Origin: an uncultured delta proteobacterium
Lineage (GTDB): Bacteria > Desulfobacterota > Binatia > UBA9968
DNA length: 64,000 nt
Direction of reading: 5' to 3'
Assembly: GCA_963760795.1 (NCBI GenBank)
Contig: CAVXEP010000022.1
Coordinates: forward strand, 128,001 to 192,000
Shown here: positions 7,087-25,700 of the stretch, in pieces
Position numbering within the stretch: position 1 is the stretch's first letter
Layout: every line of letters starts with the position of its first letter
Notes under the pieces: model-generated
Told to the model about the DNA's origin: nothing
The model's input: only the letters and a program-made list of their open reading frames with translations
Databases searched by the model: none
Program-made: the position numbers and the translations under genes

Positions 7087-7530
7087 TCAGTGGTAGGATG
7101 TTTTGCTATCCGGCGCCGCGCTCACGTCGTCGAGCAACGTCTTGCGCCCAGCAAAGCCATCTTCGATTCGATGATAGTGCGCCACGCTGGCTTCGCCGAT
7201 CTGCCAACAGAGAAACACCACTTCCGAACCGAGCATGCAGGGAAAGTCAATCAATCCCTGCTCGACGCCTTTGCACACGCAGCCATGGCCGTTAATCGCC
7301 GTCACCCAATCCTTGATCTGCGTGACCAGTTTCAGGACCTCGCCATCCTCGCGCAATCGTTCCATCAGATTGGCCGCGTCGGGATCGAGCTGCTCGCGCC
7401 GAATCACCGCCTCGCTGACGCCCTTCAAGCGCCGGATATTTTCCAGGATTTGCTCCACCAGCGGCCGCAGCACCGGCAAGAGTCCGTTGGCTTCGTTGAC
7501 CGTGAAGAGTCGAGGAAAATTGGCGTCCAT
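7087..7530 (-). CDS. DUF2203 family protein
   Basis: RLFTVNEANGLLP...KGVEQGLIDFP....VFLCWQIGE...HYH...GFAGR pattern. Confidence 0.85.
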   Translation of the reverse strand: MDANFPRLFTVNEANGLLPVLRPLVEQILENIRRLKGVSEAVIRREQLDPDAANLMERLREDGEVLKLVTQIKDWVTAINGHGCVCKGVEQGLIDFPCMLGSEVVFLCWQIGEASVAHYHRIEDGFAGRKTLLDDVSAAPDSKTSYH

Positions 7531-7589: not shown

Positions 7590-8885
7590 TTACAGCTTCA
7601 TGCCTTCGCGGATTTTCCGCAGCAGCGCGATGTTGTCCGAGTGGCCGGTCATGCGCGCGTGAATCGCGCCGCGAATCGGCCGGCCGAGCAAATAGAAATC
7701 GCCGAGGATATCGAGAATCTTATGGCGCGCGAATTCGTCGGCGAAACGCAGCTCGGTGTTGACGATCTTCTCGTCGTCGATCAGGATAAAATTGCTCAAC
7801 CGTCCGCCGTTGGCCAGACCCATGGTTTGCAGCTTGGCGATGTCTTTGAGAAAGCCGAAGGTCCGCGCCGGTGCGATCTCCTCGCGAAACGATGCGGCGC
7901 CGCGATGACGATAGGTATACTGCTGTTCGCCGACCGGATTGGGATAGCACAGCTCATAGTGCACCGAGAAGCTCTCCGCCGGTTCGATGGCGATGGACTC
8001 GCCGCCCTTGGCTTCAACCCGATAGGCGCGGTCGATAACGATCTCAGCGGTTTCTTCATCTTCCTGCTGAATGCCGGCTTCGTCGATGGCCTGGCAAAAC
8101 TCCAGCGCCGAGCCGTCGAGAATCGGCACTTCGCCGTGAACTTTGATGAGCAGATTGCCGATCCCATAACTGTGCAGTACCGCGAGCAAGTGCTCGACGG
8201 TGCCAACGGCGAATCCTTGGGTACGCAATGAGGTCGCGTAACCGGTGGAGCCGACGTAGTCCAAATGCGCCGGCACCGTGACTTCGCCGGAAATACCGGT
8301 AAAGCGAATTCCGCTGTTGGGCGGCAACGGATGCAAAATCAAGCCGGTCTTCACGCCCGAATGGAGCCCTTGGCCGGATAGCACGACGCTTTTTTTCAAG
8401 GTCCTTTGCTTGACGTTGCTCGACGCCACGCCCACCGACGACGCGTCGCCGCCCTTAGTCGCGGCAGTCTTCCTCTTGGCTCGGCTTAGCTGGCCCAGGG
8501 TATTCGACGACTCACCCAAAGCGCGCTGCACGGTCAGGAGCAGGCCGTCCAGGGAAACCGGCTTTTCGAGAAAATCGAAGGCGCCGAACTTCGTCGCGGT
8601 CACCGCCGTGTGAATATTGCCATGACCGGAAATCATCACGACATTGAGGTCCGGCTCCTGAAACTTGATTTCCTTGAGCAAGCCGATGCCATCGACCTGA
8701 GGCATCCAGATGTCTAGTAAAACAAGCTCGGGCCGTTCTTTACGAATCAGGTCGAGCACTTGTGTGCCGTCGCGGGTATCGATGACGCGGTAGCCTTCGT
8801 CGCGCAGCGCTTCGCGCACCGACTCGCGCACATCGTCTTCGTCGTCGACGACTAAAATCGTTTTGTTAACCGCCAGCTCGTCCAC
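7590..8885 (-). CDS. lpxC: Fusion of an NtrX-like receiver domain and UDP-3-O-acyl-GlcNAc deacetylase LpxC
   Basis: aa ~9-123 form a REC domain (VDDE, LLDIWMP, SGHG, FLEKP); aa ~160-431 form LpxC (QRTL, GLHSG, TVEHL, PILDGSA, ARTFGF, RHKILD, GH). Confidence 0.93.
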   Translation of the reverse strand: MDELAVNKTILVVDDEDDVRESVREALRDEGYRVIDTRDGTQVLDLIRKERPELVLLDIWMPQVDGIGLLKEIKFQEPDLNVVMISGHGNIHTAVTATKFGAFDFLEKPVSLDGLLLTVQRALGESSNTLGQLSRAKRKTAATKGGDASSVGVASSNVKQRTLKKSVVLSGQGLHSGVKTGLILHPLPPNSGIRFTGISGEVTVPAHLDYVGSTGYATSLRTQGFAVGTVEHLLAVLHSYGIGNLLIKVHGEVPILDGSALEFCQAIDEAGIQQEDEETAEIVIDRAYRVEAKGGESIAIEPAESFSVHYELCYPNPVGEQQYTYRHRGAASFREEIAPARTFGFLKDIAKLQTMGLANGGRLSNFILIDDEKIVNTELRFADEFARHKILDILGDFYLLGRPIRGAIHARMTGHSDNIALLRKIREGMKL

Positions 8886-8897
8886 TCACCCTCCAAG

Positions 8898-11108
8898 TTA
8901 CGAATGTACCGCTCGTTTAGCAACCTCCGAAGCGGGGAACTCAATGCTAAAGCGAGTCCCCCTGGGTTCGTTGGGCAATGCCCGAATATAGCCGCGATGA
9001 TCCTCGATGATTTGACTGACGATGGTCAGGCCCAGGCCAGTGCCGTTTTCCTTGGTGGAAAAATACGGTTCGAATATTTTCGAGCGCGTCTCCGGCGCCA
9101 AACCGCTGCCGTTATCGGCCACTTCCAACGTCACCACGTCCCGCCCACGATTGTAAACGGTCGATAACTTGATCTCACCGTCATCTTGCACCGCCGCCAC
9201 CGCGTTGTCGAGCAGATTGATCAGCACTCGCTTGATCTGGTCGCGGTCCAAATCTAACGCCGGAATCACCCCGGAGCTAAAATGAAATTGTATACCTTTG
9301 TGCCCTTCATTGAAAAGAAACAGCGACTCGCTGACGATCTCATTGAGATCCTGGGTCACTAGCTTAGCCGACGGCAGCCGCGCGAATTGGGAAAACTCAT
9401 TGACCAGGCTTTTCAGCTCTTCGACCTGCTGAATGATCGTCGTCGTGCATTTATCCAAAATACCGCCGTCGCCGCCGAGCATGCTGGCGTAGCGCTTGCG
9501 CAGCCGCTCGGCCGACAGTTGGATCGGCGTTAGCGGATTTTTGATCTCATGGGCGATGCGCCGCGCCACTTCGCGCCAGGCTTCCATGCGCTGCACTTTC
9601 TGAATTTGCGTAATGTCTTCGAGAAAAACCATGACCCCCAACGCCGAACCGTCGTCGTCGCGCAGGGTCGCCGCCGTCACCACCGCCGTCAGTTGTTGAT
9701 CGATCAGCGGGATCTTGATATCGCGCTCGATCTTCTCCAAGTCCTTGACGCTGTCGATGATCTCGGCCACCACCCGCAGCGGCTCCGACTGTAAAACATC
9801 GCGGTAGTTTTTCGCCAAGGCCTGCTCGGCTTTAACTCCGAGCATCTGCTCGGCCGCCTTGTTCCAAGTGGTGATATTTCCCGCCGGGTCCACCGACACG
9901 ACTCCGGCGGCGATGTTGGCGAGCAGGGTTTGCACCACCTTGCCGCGCCGTTCCAGTTCCAAGGTGATCTGCTTCAGGTCGCCGGTCATCTGATTGAACG
10001 ACTGGACTAAGACGCCGATCTCATCATCGCCGCTGGCCTCAATCTTATAATCCCAATTCCCCTGGGCGACTTCATGGGTACCCTCGGCGAGCTGCTGAAT
10101 CGGCACGGTGATGCCCTTGGAAAGATAAAATCCCCACCAAGTGGCCGAAAACATGATCACCAAGGTGATCAGAAACAGCGTCAAGATGTAACTGTTCTTA
10201 ACCGGCGCCTTGAGAAAGGTTAAATATTTGTACTGCTCGTAGGACTGCGAGATTTGCGCCGCCCGTTTGGTCAGACTCTTGGGCACATGATAGTCGACCA
10301 CGGCGACGCCGACGATGCGCTTTTCCGCGCCGAAGATCGGCGCGCCGCCGCGGATCACGTCGCCTTCGCCCAACGGCTGGGTCCAAGTCACGCCGATGCC
10401 GCGCAACGCCCGCGCCAAAAACTCATCGTCGGGTTTTAAATCCACAGCGTTTTTCGACTTGTCGCTCACCGCGACGATCGCCTCGCTCTGCGCCGAATAG
10501 ATCTCCACCGTGCCGAGGTTATACTCGCGCTGTTTGTCCTCGACGAGCCGGCGCAACTCAGCCCGCCGCGCGTTCTCAAAAAGTTTCTGCTCGGTGATTT
10601 TCTCACTCAACCGGCGGGCAAAAAACATCGCGTTGTTGGCGGAATTTTGATAATAGGTCTGGCCGATTTCCAAAGACCCCTGAAGAGCGCTTTCCACCTT
10701 GGAATCGAACCAGCGGTCGAAGGAATGGGTCAACAAGCCGCCGGCGATAGCGAACAACAACAGGCTCGGCACGATCGACAGCGCGACAAAAGCCAAGACC
10801 AGGCGCGACTGCAAGCGTGAGCCAAGCAAGCGGCGACGGCGCTCAAAGACCAGCTTGACCAGATTGCGCACGACCAGAAAAACCAACAGCACCAGCAGAA
10901 TGATGTTGATATTGATGATGAAGAAAAACACGATGTTGCTGCCGAGGGAATTCTCCAGCGAGATGTCCGGTGATTGCACTTCGAAAAAGATCAACGCCGC
11001 CACCATCAGCGCCGCCACCGCGATGACGATGCCCTCGCGCTTGCGCCGTTTGGCCTCTTCGGCTTTAATGCTGTCTTGGCGACTATGAGTTGGGTTTAGG
11101 GATTCCAT
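8898..11108 (-). CDS. ntrY: NtrY-like sensor histidine kinase (TM, periplasmic, HAMP, PAS, HisKA, HATPase)
   Basis: EAWREVARRIAHEIKNPLTPIQLSAERL H-box, HAMP segment DEIGVLVQSFNQM, NLLDNA, DNGSG and GTGLGL. Confidence 0.88.
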   Translation of the reverse strand: MESLNPTHSRQDSIKAEEAKRRKREGIVIAVAALMVAALIFFEVQSPDISLENSLGSNIVFFFIININIILLVLLVFLVVRNLVKLVFERRRRLLGSRLQSRLVLAFVALSIVPSLLLFAIAGGLLTHSFDRWFDSKVESALQGSLEIGQTYYQNSANNAMFFARRLSEKITEQKLFENARRAELRRLVEDKQREYNLGTVEIYSAQSEAIVAVSDKSKNAVDLKPDDEFLARALRGIGVTWTQPLGEGDVIRGGAPIFGAEKRIVGVAVVDYHVPKSLTKRAAQISQSYEQYKYLTFLKAPVKNSYILTLFLITLVIMFSATWWGFYLSKGITVPIQQLAEGTHEVAQGNWDYKIEASGDDEIGVLVQSFNQMTGDLKQITLELERRGKVVQTLLANIAAGVVSVDPAGNITTWNKAAEQMLGVKAEQALAKNYRDVLQSEPLRVVAEIIDSVKDLEKIERDIKIPLIDQQLTAVVTAATLRDDDGSALGVMVFLEDITQIQKVQRMEAWREVARRIAHEIKNPLTPIQLSAERLRKRYASMLGGDGGILDKCTTTIIQQVEELKSLVNEFSQFARLPSAKLVTQDLNEIVSESLFLFNEGHKGIQFHFSSGVIPALDLDRDQIKRVLINLLDNAVAAVQDDGEIKLSTVYNRGRDVVTLEVADNGSGLAPETRSKIFEPYFSTKENGTGLGLTIVSQIIEDHRGYIRALPNEPRGTRFSIEFPASEVAKRAVHS

Positions 11109-11147: not shown

Positions 11148-11360
11148 TTAACGTTTGAGCAAGTAAACCACAAGCGAAATCACGATACTGACGACAATGC
11201 AGGTGGTCAGCGGGAAATGGAAACTAAAGCGTTCCCGCTGGATATGGATATCGCCCGGCAGGTGGCCAAGCCATGGCAACCGGTCGGAAACCGACACCAG
11301 CACACCGGCGATAACGATGACGATGCCAAGATATATGAGAGTCTTGCCTAACCCGGCCAT
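11148..11360 (-). CDS. DUF2905 family small membrane protein
   Basis: WLGHLPGDIHI...FHFPLTTCIVVS signature. Confidence 0.88.
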   Translation of the reverse strand: MAGLGKTLIYLGIVIVIAGVLVSVSDRLPWLGHLPGDIHIQRERFSFHFPLTTCIVVSIVISLVVYLLKR

Positions 11361-11393: not shown

Positions 11394-12422
11394 TCATTCA
11401 AACAAATCCGGCTGGCCTTTGCCGGTGGCGGGCTTGGCCGCGCCCGGTTGCCGGCCAAAATGTTCGTAAGCCAGCACGGTAGCCACCCGGCCGCGCGGTG
11501 TCCGTTGAATGAATCCGGCTTGGATCAAAAATGGCTCGTAGACATCCTCGATGGTATCCTTCTCTTCGCCGATGGCAGCAGCCAAAGTCTCCACGCCCAC
11601 CGGCCCACCGGCAAACTTGTCGATCATCGCCAGCAGCAACATGGTATCCATCTTATCGAGGCCCAGGCGATCGACCTCGAGCATTCTGAGCGCCTCCACC
11701 GTCACCGCTTTAGTGATCTTACCGTCGCTTTTCACCTGGGCGTAGTCGCGCACCCGGCGCAGCAAGCGGTTGGCGATACGCGGCGTGCCGCGCGAGCGGC
11801 TGGCGATCTCGGTGATGCCGTCTTGATCTTGCTCGACGCTGAGAATCGCCGCCGAGCGCTTGAGAATGCGCGCCAGCGATCCCGCATCGTAAAAATCCAG
11901 ACGGAAACTCTGGCCGAAGCGGTCGCGCAGTGGCGAAGTAATCAAGCCCGAGCGCGTGGTTGCGCCGATCAAAGTGAATTTTTTAAGCGGCAACTTGATC
12001 GACTTGGCCGCCGGGCCCTGGCCGACCATGATGTCGATCTCGTAGTCTTCCATGGCCGGATACAGAACCTCTTCGACCACATGGTTGAGGCGGTGAATTT
12101 CGTCGATAAACAAGACGTCGCCATGGTCGAGGTTGGTCAAAAGCGCCGCCAGATCGCCGGCGCGCTCGATGATCGGCCCCGAGGTGGCCTTGATGTTGAC
12201 GCCCATCTCGCGGGCGATGATATAGGCGATGGAAGTTTTGCCCAGCCCCGGAGGGCCATGGAAAAGAATATGATCGAGGACATCACCGCGCGCCTGCGCC
12301 GCGGCGATGGCGACTTTGAGATTTTCTTTGACCCGTTCTTGGCCGACGTACTCGTCAAAGCCGCGCGGCCGCAAGCTCAGCTCGAATCCGGAATCGTCGT
12401 CGGTGCGATGGCCGTCCAACAT
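11394..12422 (-). CDS. ruvB: Holliday junction branch migration helicase RuvB
   Basis: [31 protein letters not shown] and RTPRGR. Confidence 0.98.
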
Positions 12423-12452
12423 GGTCAGTGTGCGCTCGTTCTACAAACCCGG

Positions 12453-12570
12453 AGGGCGGGTCCCGGCCCTACATTCGGATGCGAATTTCATGTGCTCTTT
12501 GCGTTCCTTGCGGCCAATCTTGCGGATCCAAATCATCCACTCTGTGAACTCTGCGTCCTCTGTGGCGAAA
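12453..12570. repeat. Intergenic repeat cluster (GTAG-type REP plus 9-mer-unit arms)
   Basis: agggcgggtcccggccctac hairpin, gtgctctttgcgttccttgcggc and ctctgtgaactctgcgtcctctgtggcgaa. Confidence 0.6.
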
Positions 12571-12585
12571 CTTATTCTCCTCTTT

Positions 12586-13182
12586 TTAGTGCCCCATCCG
12601 CTGCAAGGTCTCGCGCAGGACATCTTCCAGCGATAGCGAGTCGTTCTTGAGCACATCGCGGACAGTTTTTTCAATCTCCGGTTTTTTATATCCTAGATTG
12701 ATCAAGGCCGAAACCGCGTCCAGCATCTTTTGCGAAGACGCTTCGGGTTTCGCCGTGCTATCAAGGGTCGCCGGGGTGAACGTCAAGAACTTATCCTTCA
12801 ACTCGACAATCATGCGCTCAGCCAGCTTCTTGCCCACTCCGGGGATCGACACCAAACGCACCTGGTCACCATTGCGCAACGCCCGCGCCAATTCCTCAGC
12901 CGGGATGCCCGATAAGATATTGAGCGCGAGCTTGGGGCCGATACCCGACACACCCATGAGCAGCAGAAACACCTGCTTCTCGGCGAGATCGTGAAAGCCG
13001 AACAACTGCAGCGCGTCTTCGCGCACATGGGTATGAATCTGCAAACTCATCGGCGCGCCGAGATCCGGCAAGCGGTAAAAAACATTGAGCGGGATGAAAA
13101 CCAGATAGCCGACACCGCCAACATCGATGACCACTTCGCCGGGCTGCTTTTGCGCGAGTTTGCCGCTGATTTGCGCGATCAC
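12586..13182 (-). CDS. ruvA: Holliday junction DNA-binding protein RuvA
   Basis: IDVGGVGY, HVRED...LFGF, VSGIGPK, IPGVGKK.AER and ALINLGY. Confidence 0.97.
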   Translation of the reverse strand: MIAQISGKLAQKQPGEVVIDVGGVGYLVFIPLNVFYRLPDLGAPMSLQIHTHVREDALQLFGFHDLAEKQVFLLLMGVSGIGPKLALNILSGIPAEELARALRNGDQVRLVSIPGVGKKLAERMIVELKDKFLTFTPATLDSTAKPEASSQKMLDAVSALINLGYKKPEIEKTVRDVLKNDSLSLEDVLRETLQRMGH

Positions 13183-13224
13183 GTCAAGCCCACGGGTAGG
13201 GTTAACGAATTGTCCATCGGCCGT

Positions 13225-13795
13225 TCAACGAACGCGACCACCCCGCGGCCGCAGGGGCGTCGGCATTTTCGTCATCACCTCGGCAACCCGGCTGGTGAAC
13301 GCTTGCCGGTTGAGATGGCAGATCGCGGCGGCAAGAGCGTCCGCGGCATCCGCCGGCACCGGTCCCGATACTTTCAATATGGATCCGATCATCATTTGCA
13401 CTTGCTGCTTGGTGGCGTGGCCATAGCCCACCACCGCCGATTTTATCTCCACCGCGCTATACTCGTGAACCTCGACATCTTGCTCAGCCGCCGCCAGCAG
13501 CGCGACGCCGCGCACCTGGCCGAGTTTCAAGGCGCTTTGGACATTTTGCGCAAAGAAAACTTTTTCCAGGCTGACGCCGTCCGGGTGAAACTCGCGCACG
13601 ACATTTCGCCAGTTCGGTGTAGATCCGGCGCAGGCGGCGCGCTTGGGGCTCGGCGCTTGAGGAATTTATAGTGCCATGGCCCATATGGCGCAGCGCGTTG
13701 CCGATAACCTGGACAACCCCCCAGCCGGTCGCCATGGTTCCCGGATCGATGCCCAGGATGATGCGCGGCAGTGGTTTGTTGCCGGGGTCCGCCAC
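13225..13795 (-). CDS. ruvC: Holliday junction resolvase RuvC (one frameshift near 13605)
   Basis: ILGIDPG..ATGWG in one frame; EKVFF.QN.QSALKLGQ.RG and DAADALA in the next; extra A in a GCGAAATG run. Confidence 0.92.
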
Positions 13796-13800
13796 TGCGG

Positions 13801-14547
13801 CTAGCTCACCTTGTCCATCAGCTCATCGGGGATGTGAAAGTTGGCCGCGACATTTTGCACGTCGTCATGATCTTCCAGTTCTTCGCTGAGTTTTAAGACT
13901 TGCTCGACATTTTTGGCGTCGACGTCGACGGTATTCTTGGGCACCAGGCTAACCTGAGCGCTGGCGATGGTGATTTTTTCCTGGTCCAGCCGTTCTTTGA
14001 CTTTTTCGAAATCCTCGGGCGGGGCGATCACCTCGAAGACCTCGCCCTCGTCGCGGACATCTTCGGCGCCGGCATCGAGAGCGATATCCATCAAGCGGTC
14101 CTCGTCGATCTGCGTCTTGTCGACGGTGAGGATGCCCTTCTTATCGAACATCCAGCCGACGCAGCCGGTCTCACCCATGTTGCCGCCATGCTTGGAAAAC
14201 ATCCGGCGGATCTCCGACACCGTGCGATTCTTGTTGTCGGTCAACACCTGGGCGATGATCGCCACGCCGCCCGGACCATATCCTTCGTATTGAATCTCTT
14301 CGTAGGTAACGCCTTCGAGCTCGCCGGTGCCTTTTTTGATCGCGCGCTCGATATTATCACTCGGCATACTGCTGCCGCGGGCGGTGAGTACCGCCGTGCG
14401 CAGACGCGGATTGGCATTGATATCGCCGCCGCCCATGCGTGCCGCCACGGTGATTTCCTTAATCAGCTTGGTAAAAATTTTGCCGCGCTTGGCATCCTTG
14501 GCGGCTTTCTTATGCTTGATCGTGCTCCATTTAGAATGGCCGGACAT
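13801..14547 (-). CDS. yebC: YebC/PmpR family protein
   Basis: [22 protein letters not shown] and TDNKNRT. Confidence 0.97.
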
Positions 14548-14700: not shown

Positions 14701-15357
14701 ATGAACCTGACCCAGCGCTTTTTGGTAATCGCCTCATTGCTAGTCAGCGCCTGTTCGCTACCGCCGTCGCGGGTTCGCGTTCCAGTGCCGCCGGCTGCCG
14801 ATTCGCGCGTCAGCCAAACCGGCATCGCTTCATGGTACGGCCCCGGCTTTCACGGCAAGGCCACCGCCAGCGGCGAGATTTATAATCAAAACGACATGAC
14901 CGCAGCGCACCAGACCTTGCCCTTGGGCTCCAAGGTGATGGTCACCAACATGGAAAACGGCCGCAGCGCCGAAGTGTTGGTCAACGATCGCGGACCGTTC
15001 GCCAAAGGAAGAATCATCGATCTTTCCTACGCCGCCGCCCAGTCGGTAGACATACTAGGACCTGGGACCGCGCTCGTGCGCGTCGACGTACTCGACAGCC
15101 CGGTGCCGCTGCGGTCGATGCCCTCGGCCCTCGATTACACGCTGCAATTGGGTTCCTTCTCCCAGTTGGAAAATGCCCAGCGGTTGCGCGACCGCATCGT
15201 CAAGAGTTTCGACAGCGTCATGATCACGCCGTTGCAATCGAAGGACATCACCTACTACCGGGTTCATCTGGGCAACTTCTCCAATCGGACTGCCGCCGAA
15301 GACATGGCCAAGCGATTGAGCCAAGCCGGCTACTCGGTGATCATCAGAGAGAAATAG
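14701..15357 (+). CDS. rlpA: Septal ring lytic transglycosylase RlpA family lipoprotein (DPBB + SPOR)
   Basis: Lipobox VSAC, GIASWYG, TAAHQTLP, VNDRGPF..GRIIDLS and a C-terminal LQLGSF SPOR domain. Confidence 0.93.
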   Translation: MNLTQRFLVIASLLVSACSLPPSRVRVPVPPAADSRVSQTGIASWYGPGFHGKATASGEIYNQNDMTAAHQTLPLGSKVMVTNMENGRSAEVLVNDRGPFAKGRIIDLSYAAAQSVDILGPGTALVRVDVLDSPVPLRSMPSALDYTLQLGSFSQLENAQRLRDRIVKSFDSVMITPLQSKDITYYRVHLGNFSNRTAAEDMAKRLSQAGYSVIIREK

Positions 15358-19420: not shown

Positions 19421-22271
19421 CTACGCATGCTTAATCTGCCGCCGCGCCGCCACCGCATCCATGATCGCTTGGCTGACATCTTCGACGGCGCGTTCTTTGG
19501 GGAGGCAGGTCACCGCCCCGGACGCTTGCATCGCCCGGACCACATAGTCCTCGGTGCCGAAGGATATCCCGATGACGATGGTCGATGGCCGGTCATGCAT
19601 GACTTTTTCGGTCGCCTCGATACCATTCATGTTCGGCATATTGACGTCCATGATCACGACCTGCGGTTCGAGCAGCCGCGCCAGGGCCAGCGCTTCCGCC
19701 CCGTCGCTTGCCTCGCCGACGACAGTGAAGGCGTCGTGCTCTTCCAACACTCGGCGCAACCCCTGGCGGAGCATTTTGTGATCGTCGACGATCAGAATCT
19801 TGATCGCCTGCTCGATAACCGGCGCCGTCGCGCTCGGCAACAAAATCGGCTCAACCATTTTGGCCGAGGCCACCGCCTTTCGATCCATCGGCAAAACGAT
19901 CAACACCCCAGTTCCCGCTCCCGGAGTAGAATTGATTTCGACAGCTCCGCCGCGCAGTTCCACCCGCTCGTGAATGCTGAACAAGCCGAAATGGCTGCGG
20001 CCGTCGCCGTTGGCGCGCACGGTTTGCGCGTCAAACCCTTTGCCGTCGTCGGTCACCGCGAGAGACACGCGATCGCCGTCGCGTCCATAAGCTAGCGTCG
20101 CGCGGTCAGTGAAGCCATGCTTGACGACGTTCCACAGCAGTTCGCGAGCGCACTGGAACAGGAACACCGCGTCATCCTGCGCCAGCGAGAAGCCATCGGC
20201 CGGTCCGTCGACCTCGACGCGCAAGCCATGCCGGGCCATTTGCTCGCCGAGCCAGCGGAACGCCGCCGGCAAGCCCAGATCGTAGAGCACCGGCGGACTC
20301 AACTCGGCGATCAGCGAGCGCGTGTACTTGATCGAATCGTCGACCGTTTTATCGAGGTTGCCCAAGATTTCCTTAAACGAAGCGCCATGGGCCTGGTCGC
20401 CCAGCAGTTCGCGCACGCGCCACAGGTACAGGTTGACCACCGCCAACGACTGCGCCAAGGTATCGTGCAGATCCACCGCCAGGCGGCGCCGCTCGCGCTC
20501 CTCGGTCATGGTCAATTCGGCGACCAGCGCGCGCAGTCGGGCACGCGACTCGGCGAGTTCTTGCGTGCGCTGCGCGACGCGCCGGTCGAGTTGCTCGTTC
20601 AAATTTCGCAGCGCTTCCTCCGCCGCTTTGCGCTGCGTGATATCGAAATTGATACCGGCAATGTGGGTTGGCGTGCCGTTACGATCGCGCCGCAAGCCGC
20701 CATAGCCACTCAACCAAATCATCATGCCATCGGGGCGCAAAAAGCGGTATTCACACTTGTAGTCCTGGCCGTCGCTGCTCGGATCTGCTAATCGCTTCTT
20801 TCAAGATGGGCAGATCCGCGGGATGAACATGGGCAAGAAACAAGTCAAGGTTGATGGCCCGGTCCTTGGCGATTCCGAATATTTCGAAATCCCGGTCGTC
20901 CCAAGTCATTTCTCCGCTGCGCAAATCCCGCTCCCAAGTGCCCATATGGCCGACCGCCAGCGCATGTTGAAGCCGCTCCTCGCTGGCACGCAGAGCTTCT
21001 TCGGCGCGCATCCGCTCGGTAATATCGAGCACCGCGCCGAGGGTACGCACAGGCTTGCGAGCATCCCCAGTGCCGTCGAAAAAGGTTTGCGCCCGATTCA
21101 AGATCCAGCCGATGCTGCCGTCGCGCCGAACCACGCGGCACTCATATAACAAGCGCCCGTCGCCGGCTGGGTCACGAGCCCGCCGCCTTGCCAGGTTGAC
21201 GATTTCCCTATCGTCAGGGTGGATTTGCGATAAAAAATCGCCGACGCGCTCCTGCCGATCTCCGGGCAAGTCGATTATTTTTCTTAAAGTCGTCGAGAAA
21301 TACACCCCGTCCGCCACATGATCGCGCTCGAAAATGCCAATGTCGGCGACATCGACGGTGTGGCGCAACAGGGCCTCCGTCTTCGTCAACGATGCGACCG
21401 CCTGCGCCAACTCCGCCGTCCGTTCCTCGACGCGCCGCTCAAGCTCAGCGTGCGCTTGGCGCAACGCGTCTTCGGTGCGCTTGCGATCGTTGATGTCCTG
21501 GATGACGCTGATGAAATGGCTCGGGGTACCAGACGCGTCGCAATGCAGCGAGGCCGTCAGATTCACCCAAACAAGCTCTCGATCTTTGCGGATATAACGC
21601 TTCTCCATCGAGAACGTGGTGATCTCGCCGGCCATGAGTTGCGTCCTTAATGCCAAGTTCAGTTGGAGATCATCCGGGTGGGTAAGGTCTTGGGCCGCAA
21701 GCGATCGCATCTCCTCGGCGGAGTATCCGGTAATGTCGCACACCTTCTGATTCATCCGTAACCAACGGCCGTCTAATCCCACATGCGATATGCCGACCGA
21801 GGCTTGTTCGAACGTCACCCGATAAAGTTGCTCGCTCGCGCGCAGCGCGTCTTCGGCGCGCGTTCGATCGCCGATGTCGTGGAAGACGCTGAAAGAATGT
21901 CTCGGCGCGCCGGACTCGCCTTCGAGACGGCGGCGAGTATTGTGCAGCGCCGCGGACATCGCGCTGATCGATACTCCGACCAGGGCAAACAACCCGAGAG
22001 TGAGCAGATTGGCGGTTTCAGCTAATGCAGGTAAACCGCCCGGCTCAAAGATCGCGAAGGCAGCTAGAATCAAGCTCAGAGCGGTGGCCAACAGGCCGGG
22101 CCCAATCCCGCCGTTCAAAGCGCTCAACGTGATGGCCAAGGTAAACAGCAACACCCGGTCGCGCTCGCCAAGCAATGGCTGTAAGCCCGCTCCAGCCTCA
22201 TAAATCAATCCGGTCATGACGATCGCTACCAGATAGCGCCAGCGGTGCAGTTTGGTCAGCGCGGTTATCAT
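19421..22271 (-). CDS. Hybrid sensor kinase: DUF4118-like membrane sensor, 3 PAS, HisKA_3, HATPase, REC (frameshift near 20770)
   Basis: ORFs 20751-22271 and 19421-20740 join within a PAS domain; ERRRLAVDLHD H-box, NVVKH, DDGKGF, FGL and REC MDVNMP. Confidence 0.85.
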
Positions 22272-22765: not shown

Positions 22766-25700
22766 TTAATCTGACGCCACGCCGCGCCGCTCCTCCACCG
22801 CGTCGACGATCGCTTGGTGAATATCCTCCGCCGCCCGTTCCTTGGTAACGCAGGTGAAGGCGCCGGCAGCTTTCATCTTTTGCGCTACCTCCGCACCGTT
22901 ATCGAAGGACAGTCCAACCACGATCGTCGACGGCATTTCTTGGAGAATTAACTTGGTCGCTTCGATGCCGTTCATGCGCGGCATGTTGACGTCCATCACG
23001 ACCACGTCGGGTCTAAACTCGCGCGCCAACTCGACGCCTGCCAAGCCGTCATTGGCTTCGCCGACCACCGTAAGGTCGGGGTATTCCTCGATCATTTGGC
23101 GCATGCCCCGGCGCACCACCGTATGATCGTCCACCAGCGCGATACGTAACTGTTTTCCGTTCCCCAGGACCGCGCTGGTTTGCACGGTGCCATGGGCAAG
23201 CGCCGGCGCCATTTCGCTTGGCGGCGCCGGCAAGGTAAATCGTACCCTCGTTCCACGCCCCGGCTGCGATGTCACTTCGAGTTTGCCGCCGGACAACTCC
23301 AATCGTTCGCGGATGCTAAACAGTCCGAACTTCTCCACGCCGTTACCGTTTGCGTGCAGACTCTCTACGTCAAATCCCCGGCCATCATCAGCGACTTCGA
23401 TAGTCAACTCACCATGCTCGATTTTATAGGAAACCAGCGCTTGATTGGCCTGCGCATGCTTGACGATATTCCACAGCAGCTCGCGCGTGCATTGATAAGC
23501 CAGCACGGAACATTCTTCGTCCAAGACGAATCCTTCGGCCGCGCCGCTAATCTCGATCTTGAGTCCATGCCTTTCCTGCTGTTGGGCGGCGAGCCAGGTG
23601 AGCGCCGCGGGCAATCCTAGTTCGTAAAGCATCCGCGGACTCAGTTGGGCCATCAGCGAGCGCGTATAAGCGATCGATTCGTCCACCGACTCCATCGCCT
23701 CGGCCAAGCGTTGCTTCAACGCGTCACCCGCGGCGAGCCTTTCCGCCCGGCCGATATTCAATCGGCTGACGGTCAGCATCTGCGCCAGATAATCGTGCAG
23801 CTCCACGGCCAGCCGGCGCCGCTCACGCTGCTCGGTCTTGGTGATGTCCGCCACTAGCGAGCGCAGGCGCGTTTGCGACTCGGCCAATTCCCGCGTTCGT
23901 TCGACGACCCGGCGATCCAGGTCTTCGGTCAGTTTGCGCAACGCTTCTTCCGCGCGTTTGCGCTCGGTGATATCGAGTACGGCACCGACGGTGCGCGCCG
24001 GCCTGCGGCCGTCGCCGCTGCCTTCAAAAAAAACTTGCGCTCTAATCATAATCCAGCCGAGGCTGCCGTCGCTCCGAATAACCCGGCACTCCAGGGAAAA
24101 TTGGCCGTCGCCCGCGCGCTCACGGGACCGCTGCGCGGCGATGACTGTCGTCCGGTCATCAGGGTGTATTTTAGCCATAAATTCGCCCAGGCTACCCTTC
24201 CGATCTTCAGACAATGCCAATATTCTTCTTAACATGGGCGAGTAATGCACTTCATCGGAATCATGATCGCGCTCGAATATCCCGAGGTTCGCCACGTCGA
24301 CAGCCTGGTGCAGCAACGCCTCAGTTTTCTTTAAGGTAGCGACGGCCTGCTGCAACTCGGCGGTTCGCTCCTCAACGCGGAGCTCAAGCTCGTCATAGGC
24401 CTGACGGAGCGCCTCCTCAGCTCTTTTTCGCTCGGTAATGTCGAGCACCGTACCCGCCATGCGCAGCTCATTGCCGCTCGCATCGCGGAACAATTCGCCG
24501 CGCCAATGAACGAAACGAATCTCGCTATTCGGATGCACGACCCGAAACTCGATATCGCAGTGGGTTGTCCCATTGAATGCCAAGCGCAAATACTCCTGGA
24601 CTCGCGACCGGTCGTCGGGATGAATCCGGTTGACCCAGCTATCGTAACTCGACGCGACCGAACCGGGCTCGTAACCGAGAAGACGATAGTTTTCATCAGA
24701 CCAAGTGTTTCGGCCGGTTTGGAAATCCCACTCCCAGCTGCCAAGGTGAGCGATCGCCTGGGCATCAACAAGATGTTGCTCGATCTGGCGCAACGCTTCC
24801 TCTGCCAGTTTGCGCTCGGTGATATCGGTCGAGGCGCCGAGCACCTGGGTCGCGCGGCCCGTCTCATCCAGTAGGGGTCGTTTAACGGTTTGCAGCCACC
24901 GTTGCCGGCCACTCGAGTCCGTGATGGTTTGTTCTGGTATGAACATTTCTTGCAGCGTGTCCATCACTTGAAGATCCATTTTGCGGTTATACTCCACCTC
25001 GGCGGCATTGGAGTTGAAGTCCGCGTCGGTTTTGCCGACAAGGTTTTCCACGGTGGTGCCATAGGCATCTGCCAAAGCTTTGTTCACCAGTCTATAACGT
25101 CCCTGGTAATCTCGGACAAAAATAAAGTTCGGATCGGTATCGATAATCTGGCGAATCTGGTCATGCGACTTTTGCAGTTGCTGATGAGCCTGGTAGCGGT
25201 CAACCTCGCCGCCGATCCATACCGCCATGAGCCTGAGAAAATCCTTATCGGAATCGCTAAATTGTCCTCGATACGGCAATGGGCCGTAAAAGCAGAGGGT
25301 GCCGTAGAGCGCGCCGTTGATGACTATTTTGGTTCCCATGAACGATTCCACACCCAGGGTGAGGTAACCGGCATGGTGGCGCCATGCCGAGGCGGCGATA
25401 TGCTCGTTACAAAGCGGCTCATTTGCCTCGACAACATAGCTGCAATAGGAAACACGTAGCGGTAATCTCATTCCTGGCGAAAGGTTGCCGTCCGGAGGAT
25501 GAGCGCAGAGAATTTCCAGCTCGTCACCCTGGAGAAATGTCAACACCCCAGAAGGGAAGATCAAAACGCGCGCAGCCGAACGCAAGCAGTGCGCGCACTC
25601 GCTCAGCAAAGGAAAGTTCAATGGCGTTGGTTATCTCGTACAGCCGACGGATGCTCTGTTCGCTGGCAGTAACCGCCAACTCCGCCTGCTTGCGCGCGGT

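Follow-up and report, generated by a model that had tools for sequence, protein, structure and literature searches.

LpxC carries out the step that commits a cell to lipid A synthesis. This step is tightly controlled and in most cases essential, and the enzyme is a major target for antibiotics. Its known controls act by proteolysis, through partner proteins or on transcription. Here we describe a gene in which LpxC is fused to the receiver (REC) domain of a response regulator. The gene lies in a 64,000-nucleotide (nt) stretch of DNA from an uncultured delta proteobacterium (assembly GCA_963760795.1, contig CAVXEP010000022.1, positions 128,001 to 192,000), termed the window below, and it directly follows a gene for an NtrY-type sensor histidine kinase. 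The encoded protein of 431 amino acids (aa) is probably, with considerable room for doubt, a housekeeping LpxC that has been built in as the response regulator of the adjacent kinase, such that phosphorylation of D58 would set LpxC output after translation.

Two-component systems have been connected with lpxC before. NtrYX influences lpxC mRNA and lipopolysaccharide (LPS) levels in alphaproteobacteria (PMC7240162; PMC12444477). In Rhodobacter sphaeroides without NtrYX, lpxC mRNA is 8.8-fold up and more LPS is present, and no NtrX site lies at lpxC (Lemmer et al. 2020, PMC7240162). NtrX lacks the GAFTGA motif and is described as specific to Alphaproteobacteria (bioRxiv 10.1101/2023.06.06.543975). 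The window system resembles alphaproteobacterial NtrY-NtrX in that its kinase has the same layout (NtrY_N-HAMP-PAS-HisKA-HATPase) and its REC domain is closest to that of Brucella NtrX. However, NtrX binds DNA and regulates many targets, and lpxC is reported to be affected indirectly, whereas the window system has the enzyme itself fused to the receiver.

A regulator dedicated to lpxC is described in Desulfovibrio vulgaris, where lpxC is the single target of DVU2934 (Rajeev et al. 2011, PMC3333781). In Syntrophobacter fumaroxidans, lpxC lies directly upstream of an operon orthologous to DVU2931/DVU2934 (PMC3333781). A 2025 review of lipid A regulation classes the effects of both NtrYX and DVU2934 as transcriptional, non-specific controls (PMC12444477). 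DVU2931/DVU2934 is like the window system in being a two-component system dedicated to lpxC, and the gene order of the S. fumaroxidans type, as far as it is described in that source, recurs in 6 of 20 loci with a plain lpxC gene in the phylum of the window. DVU2934 differs in that it acts by DNA binding at the lpxC promoter, and its orthology to the window system can be proposed from the described gene order only.

In Escherichia coli, the FtsH/LapB/YejM proteolysis of LpxC, like control by partner proteins elsewhere, employs separate proteins and the C-terminal tail of the enzyme, whereas the window protein carries a candidate phospho-switch domain within the enzyme chain. LpxC-FabZ fusions (PRK13188) are a precedent for the natural joining of LpxC to a functionally linked domain. 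Their partner is an enzyme at the C terminus, in contrast to the N-terminal signalling domain of the window protein, which scores 210 bits with PRK13188 against a cut-off of 465.

The methylesterase CheB, like the window protein, has REC at the N terminus and a hydrolase at the C terminus of a single chain, with a flexible linker between them. As long as the REC domain of CheB is unphosphorylated it blocks the active site, and phosphorylation relieves the block. The catalytic domains are unrelated, and the CheB model covers only residues 10-164 of the window protein. CheB also serves chemotaxis adaptation with CheA, whereas the window protein would serve lipid A synthesis with an NtrY-like kinase, and docking of REC on LpxC is hypothetical. 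By its domain content, the fusion is an enzyme-output response regulator, a known kind of protein that is here applied to LpxC.

No description of a REC-LpxC fusion was found in a full-text literature search that had most subscription journals outside its scope, and domain databases surely list the architecture. The words "receiver," "fusion" and "fused" are absent from the 2025 review (PMC12444477). An earlier reading of this DNA, made from its letters alone and called here the sequence-only reading, likewise knew of no characterised example.

A receiver-LpxC fusion fixed across a class

The open reading frame (ORF) of 431 aa is uninterrupted, and the Pfam matches bear out the sequence-only reading of it as a receiver, a linker and a full LpxC (Table 1). 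Response_reg (PF00072) matches with E 2.1e-30 (105.6 bits, cut-off 30.2) and LpxC (PF03331) with E 1.4e-82 (277.7 bits, cut-off 27), and both E-values are far outside chance. With TIGR00325, the NCBIfam equivalog model for lpxC, the score is 250 bits (cut-off 187.25). Pfam finds no AAA+ or helix-turn-helix (HTH) match in the protein. The NtrX model NF051870 reaches 138.5 bits against a cut-off of 600 and covers profile positions 3-156 of 452. Judged by these models, the 431-aa protein is not an NtrX, and its likeness to NtrX is confined to the REC domain.

Among solved structures, the REC domain is matched best by the Brucella NtrX receiver (4d6x, E 1e-29) and by full NtrX (5m7n), and Aquifex NtrC-type receivers rank below them. 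Thus, the proposal that the receiver is NtrX-like stands for the REC domain, on these matches and on the tree described below, and falls for the protein as a whole.

The LpxC part aligns over its full length with the enzymes of Pseudomonas aeruginosa and Aquifex aeolicus, with the TVEH, RHKILD and GH motifs in register. An AlphaFold2 (AF2) model built from a 20-row alignment has a mean predicted local distance difference test (pLDDT) score of 87. Means over ten-residue blocks are 81-98 for most of the LpxC domain and 67-76 near residues 351-370. With Foldseek, the modelled LpxC part matches the LpxC structures of P. aeruginosa, E. coli and A. aeolicus at target-normalised template-modelling (TM) scores of 0.84-0.95.

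The same model predicts residues 127-154 to be disordered (pLDDT below 50), in line with the flexible linker proposed from the sequence. Across 20 orthologues the linker is gapped and without conservation, and both its length and its sequence vary. The spacer from REC to LpxC measures 19-109 aa (median 30) in 142 REC-LpxC proteins.

The residues singled out in the sequence-only reading were named correctly. D14 and D15 (the acidic pair of VDDE), D58, S86 and K108 of the REC domain, and E231/H232 (TVEH), H388/K389/D392 (RHKILD) and H415 (GH) of the LpxC domain, are invariant in the 20 orthologues, which are 40-56% identical and are all members of the window's phylum. They are still invariant when orthologues from two other phyla are added. 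Two database searches yielded 270 proteins, of which 157 are homologues with two full domains. All 157 keep the six metal-binding or catalytic residues of LpxC, and each of the five REC signature residues is kept in 153-156 of them. At the phosphoacceptor position, 155 have Asp like D58, one has Asn and one has Ser; at the position of K108, 156 have Lys. The roles of the LpxC zinc ligands (His, His, Asp) and of the catalytic Glu and His are known from LpxC structures. These alignments show each domain to be complete and under purifying selection. The conservation is that of an intact REC and an intact LpxC, and the two halves look functional.

The window belongs to a metagenome-assembled genome (MAG) that totals 6.58 Mb in 35 contigs, with completeness of 88.9% and estimated contamination of 6%. 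The fusion might in principle be an artefact, namely a chimera of the assembly, or a frameshift or deletion private to this genome, that merged separate ntrX and lpxC genes. The nature of the source, with its estimated contamination, is what favours such an artefact. However, the 120 nearest proteins in a collection of 5.8 billion all have both Pfam domains, at 72-99% identity, and the nearest database homologue (99% identity) is likewise 431 aa long. Candidatus Binatia is the commonest organism label among the 120, with single rows labelled Acidobacteriota, Terriglobales and Phototrophicaceae. Public contigs from two studies bridge the linker with no indels reported: one of 758 nt from mine drainage covers 7867-8622, another of 335 nt from soil covers 8263-8597, and each joins REC, linker and LpxC. 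The fused LpxC domains are also monophyletic (see below). We count the artefact explanation as refuted.

The sequence-only reading asked whether the genome has a further lpxC gene. None was found: the genome has one PF03331 match, which is the fusion gene. LpxA, LpxB and LpxK are present on contig 32, and the fusion protein presumably serves the lipid A pathway of the organism. In a census of the window's class (61 genomes from 17 families and 43 genera), each of the 61 has exactly one LpxC locus, and in 59 it lies in an open frame of at least 411 aa. The two exceptions are an LpxC at a contig end and one in four frame-shifted pieces. The latter, the sole LpxC of its genome (G687:C5:524273-525078), reflects either sequencing error or a broken gene. 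The fusion is neither an assembly artefact nor an accessory copy. The sequence-only reading had allowed that related genomes might show separate genes, and the fusion instead proved to be class-wide.

Of 201 genomes sampled from the window's phylum, 48 carry a fused form. In 28 of the 201, the window's own included, the protein is matched end to end. Six more have LpxC in frames of 450-497 aa, and the three of these that were examined are REC-LpxC proteins with longer linkers. Another 14 have LpxC in frames of 690-837 aa. End-to-end fusions are also found in two further phyla. In the phylum of genome G201, labelled Vicinamibacterales (Acidobacteriota), 16 of 201 sampled genomes carry one at 47-49% identity. 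In that of G202, labelled Nitrospirota, 18 of 151 do so at 42-44% identity. The fusion is the sole LpxC in four of five carriers checked in these other phyla. Taken together, these counts show, as far as sampled genomes go, that the fusion has become fixed in an entire class and occurs in three phyla.

In the ESM Atlas, Response_reg plus LpxC is the architecture of 17 of the 30 nearest large clusters. A search of genome contigs for related loci is not a census, and the best 80 of at least 600 stretches were nearly all plain LpxC, with L051 and L052 fused. Carriers come mainly from soil and mine-drainage metagenomes, and the closest relatives with a name bear the label Candidatus Binatia or Binatota.

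Table 1. Coordinates, in the window, of the fusion gene, its parts and the upstream kinase gene
Feature	Position	Strand	Basis or remark
REC-linker-LpxC fusion gene	7590..8885	(-)	ORF, 431 aa, GTG start; Pfam and NCBIfam
Receiver (REC) domain, residues 10-119	8529..8858	(-)	Pfam Response_reg
Phosphoacceptor D58 codon	8712-8714	(-)	Within REC domain
Interdomain linker, residues ~120-159, ~35 aa	8409..8528	(-)	AF2 pLDDT, alignment
LpxC deacetylase domain, residues 160-425	7611..8408	(-)	Pfam, TIGR00325, structure matches
Spacer between kinase stop and fusion GTG, 12 nt	8886..8897	(-)	Holds GGAGG ribosome-binding site
NtrY-type sensor histidine kinase gene, 736 aa	8898..11108	(-)	ORF and Pfam domains

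The adjacent kinase and candidate modes of control

The kinase gene ends with TAA at 8898-8900 and the GTG of the fusion is at 8885. The spacer between them, cttggagggtga, contains GGAGG, exactly as the sequence-only reading described. A 988-nt contig from an RNA library covers the junction of the kinase and REC-lpxC genes, and it is at most a weak hint of their co-transcription. Scans for promoters and terminators gave 3 and 7 sites, respectively, where chance alone would give 1.7 and 5.5, and no operon signal is claimed. Rfam has no match in the scanned region.

All Pfam domains of the kinase (NtrY_N, HAMP, PAS, HisKA and HATPase_c) score above their cut-offs, NtrY_N with 33.5 bits against 23.2. 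The NtrY_N match is the single one in the window's genome, and of 14 control genomes Caulobacter alone has a match. The best NCBIfam match listed for the kinase is the LIC_11548 family (283 bits, cut-off 750), and no NtrY model is among the listed matches.

An NtrY-like kinase gene lies directly upstream of the fusion in all six class members examined (the window's own genome and five others) and also in genome G162. Among the 29 short-fusion loci examined, the kinase is adjacent in 7. For the long fusions it is adjacent in 4 of 7, and one of the other three ends at a contig edge. Each of five checked genomes with a kinase-less fusion has exactly one strong NtrY-like kinase elsewhere, and in none of the five do the 1.5-kb flanks of that lone kinase contain a REC gene. 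The frames downstream encode a carbamoyltransferase, a ParB-like protein, a protein without a Pfam family, and two proteins that were checked by BLAST only and have no REC. An orphan kinase and a fusion without an adjacent kinase in the same genome fit a cognate pair. From gene order and domain content, the 431-aa protein appears to have its cognate histidine kinase in the adjoining NtrY-type gene.

According to our proposal, the NtrY-type kinase would phosphorylate D58, and phosphorylation would change LpxC output at the protein level. REC might dock on the hydrolase domain and release it in the manner of CheB, or phosphorylation might drive dimerisation. The long, unconserved and disordered linker argues against rigid helical coupling and fits either CheB-like docking or dimerisation. 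Phosphorylated REC may mean more LpxC activity. This is a guess, made because it would give continuity with the sigma-54 activators that would switch lpxC on in relatives, and the sign is the weakest step of the scheme.

Alternatively, REC could govern the amount of LpxC, with its phosphorylation state exposing or hiding a degradation signal or an adaptor face, as for RssB or CpdR. Proteolysis is firmly established as a control of LpxC amount in E. coli, and a role of Lon has been suggested for some alphaproteobacteria, according to the 2025 review (PMC12444477). The shape of the C terminus is also relevant. The fused LpxC ends 6 residues past the Pfam domain, and its alignment with the P. aeruginosa enzyme stops at chain residue 276 of 295. 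With no P. aeruginosa-type C-terminal tail, the fused enzyme would need another handle for proteolysis. The zinc-ribbon model used for LapB, PF18073, has one match in the genome, a RadA-type protein, which does not show that LapB is absent from an 89% complete genome; the model is not specific for LapB. Nevertheless, no protease or adaptor is indicated by the sequence, no protease gene is linked, and the conservation pattern fits control of activity equally well. We regard control of amount as rather unlikely.

The RadA-type protein (L050 1387-2841 (+), genome G000, contig 5) combines a KaiC/RecA ATPase with a Lon/ChlI-like C-terminal part.

REC might also be a tether. Binding to the kinase would then draw LpxC to the inner membrane, and phosphorylation would affect its residence there and not its turnover number. 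The kinase is a multi-pass membrane protein (NtrY_N), and the later enzymes of lipid A synthesis work at the inner membrane. A LapB homologue has been proposed to localise LpxC to the membrane in Neisseria meningitidis, as the review states (PMC12444477). However, a pure tether needs no full phosphorylation machinery, and that machinery is kept in 155-156 of the 157 homologues. Contacts between kinases and regulators are also usually transient. A tethering role is improbable.

Information could instead flow in reverse. Binding of substrate or product by LpxC might alter REC phosphorylation and thereby report lipid A flux, or the protein might simply drain phosphate. In long relatives (see below), an HTH-like stretch beside LpxC would allow a design of enzyme plus regulator, but the window protein lacks any DNA-binding part. 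NtrY_N occurs in one kinase of the genome, and of the other NtrC-family regulators the 8 that score best with the NtrX model all fall outside the NtrX-like REC clade. With one such kinase and no further NtrX-like regulator among these 8, the kinase would have no other output under reverse flow, and we consider this arrangement quite improbable.

Several observations weigh against our proposal that the kinase controls LpxC through D58. We infer both the phosphotransfer and its effect on LpxC. Two of the 157 homologues lack Asp at the phosphorylation site, and no coupling element is visible in the unconserved linker. Fixed packing of the two domains is predicted inconsistently, with an AF2 predicted TM score of 0.83 for the window protein versus 0.69 for an orthologue labelled Nitrospirota, from the phylum of G202. 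At least three carriers (G034, G199 and G474) also hold a plain LpxC, and because the MAG is 89% complete a second lpxC is conceivable, although the class census speaks against one. In addition, 22 of the 29 REC-LpxC loci have no adjacent kinase.

This last count, together with the fact that LpxC works as a single-domain enzyme elsewhere, would be expected if REC were a neutral leftover and the protein simply an LpxC with an appendage. A useless domain would decay, but the five REC signature residues are invariant in the 20 orthologues and nearly so among all homologues, and the five genomes with a kinase-less fusion each keep one NtrY-like kinase with no adjacent regulator. We therefore consider a neutral REC highly improbable. 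A complex prediction of REC (residues 1-126) against LpxC (residues 155-431), run without controls, gave no answer (score 0.00) and weighs neither for nor against coupling of the domains.

G034, G199 and G474, with a fused and a plain LpxC each (G474 being the exception among the carriers checked in other phyla), could reveal what the fused copy does when it is non-essential.

If our proposal of phospho-control is correct, a two-component signal would act on envelope biosynthesis without a gene-expression step, which would be a new control principle, and LpxC would represent a new class of response-regulator output. An outside signal may in this way act directly on outer-membrane synthesis through the fused REC-LpxC. 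The fusion would also be a "Rosetta stone" that links lipid A homeostasis to NtrY-type kinases, whose signals and purpose remain a matter of debate. The kinase core and one enzyme would make a simple purified system for testing that link.

Long relatives and the ancestry of the fusion

The frames of 690-837 aa contain REC, a sigma-54-type AAA+ domain with its lid, and LpxC, as seen with Pfam in four of them and with BLAST in two more. We aligned these six long forms with an unfused NtrX-like regulator. Walker A is kept, whereas all six lack GAFTGA and have another residue in place of the Walker B Glu. In five of the six, a stretch that aligns with the Fis-type HTH of the regulator immediately precedes LpxC. 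In contrast to the long forms, the unfused regulator that neighbours lpxC in locus L048 has Walker A, Walker B and GAFTGA all present. Because GAFTGA and the Walker B Glu are lost, the AAA+ domain of the long forms is presumably no longer able to act on sigma-54. The long forms look like whole regulators with LpxC joined at the C terminus. In each of the five long-form genomes checked, the fusion is the sole LpxC.

Among 76 LpxC domains in a maximum-likelihood tree (29 from short fusions, 7 from long fusions and 40 plain), all 36 fused ones fall in one clade, with a Shimodaira-Hasegawa-like approximate likelihood-ratio test (SH-aLRT) value of 100. A REC tree of 51 rows unites the 36 fused REC domains with 7 from unfused regulators linked to lpxC (SH-aLRT 99). 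The clade leaves out the 8 other NtrC-family regulators of the genome that score best with the NtrX model.

Six of the 7 unfused regulators come from the 20 plain-lpxC loci of the window's phylum, which were drawn from the top plain matches and are not a random sample. In these six loci, lpxC, an NtrY-like kinase gene and a gene for a REC-AAA+-HTH regulator come in this order on one strand. The seventh locus is L048. The grouping shows that, on tree evidence, the fused REC domains have their orthologues in the regulators of ntrY/ntrX-like operons that are linked to lpxC in unfused relatives. The earlier statement that the fusion occupies the position of ntrX also holds, since in the unfused relatives a REC-AAA+-HTH regulator follows the NtrY-type kinase.

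In the window, a yebC-ruvC-ruvA-ruvB cluster (11394-14547 (-)) lies upstream of the kinase gene, and it adjoins the lpxC-ntrY-ntrX-like genes in distant unfused relatives (L141, L145, L025, L022). Two of the six loci described above have yebC, ruvA and ruvB upstream, as in the window. Because this neighbourhood is common to distant unfused relatives, it predates the fusion.

No simple deletion between neighbours can have produced the fusion, because lpxC precedes the kinase gene in unfused loci but LpxC follows REC in the fusions. LpxC may have joined a whole regulator whose middle was lost later, rather than simply replacing an output domain. The sequence-only reading held that the enzyme took the place of the transcriptional output. 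The slot in the operon and the grouping of the REC domains agree with this, whereas the existence of longer relatives suggests that it may not have been a simple replacement. Monophyly of the long forms is not rejected by an approximately unbiased (AU) test (p-AU 0.732), and the deep forks of the tree are weak. Because the AAA+ domain shows decay, we lean towards the view that the long form preceded the short form.

A broader history can be offered tentatively, and we hold it to be possible but somewhat doubtful. In several phyla, an old NtrY-type system dedicated to lpxC would have given up sigma-54-dependent transcription of the gene and come to control LpxC directly by phosphorylation, with the whole regulator attached first and its AAA+ and HTH parts decaying afterwards. 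If so, the signalling state of a single membrane sensor would directly determine how much lipid A is made in the window's class. This ancestry would also account for the effects of NtrYX on lpxC and the envelope in Alphaproteobacteria.

The plain lpxC gene of L048 (3715-6912 (+), genome G164) ends a 1065-aa open frame in which Pfam finds LpxC only (residues 763-1032), and the long stretch ahead of it may be a non-coding open frame in GC-rich DNA or an extension of unassigned kind.

Other genes lie near the fusion in the window. A DUF2203 gene (7087-7530 (-)) is located 59 nt downstream of the fusion gene. No counterpart was present beside the fusion in the 27 related loci scanned, and we thus do not count this gene as part of the system. 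Between ruvB and the kinase gene is a frame for a small membrane protein of 70 aa (DUF2905, E 4.5e-24) at 11148-11360 (-). A cell-wall gene for an RlpA-like protein, with the DPBB_1 lytic transglycosylase fold and a SPOR domain, lies near the locus on the other strand (14701-15357 (+)). Finally, the window contains a second signalling cluster (19421-20740, 20751-22271 and 22766-25621, all (-)), which consists of two hybrid histidine kinases with C-terminal receivers and a DUF4118-PAS protein between them.

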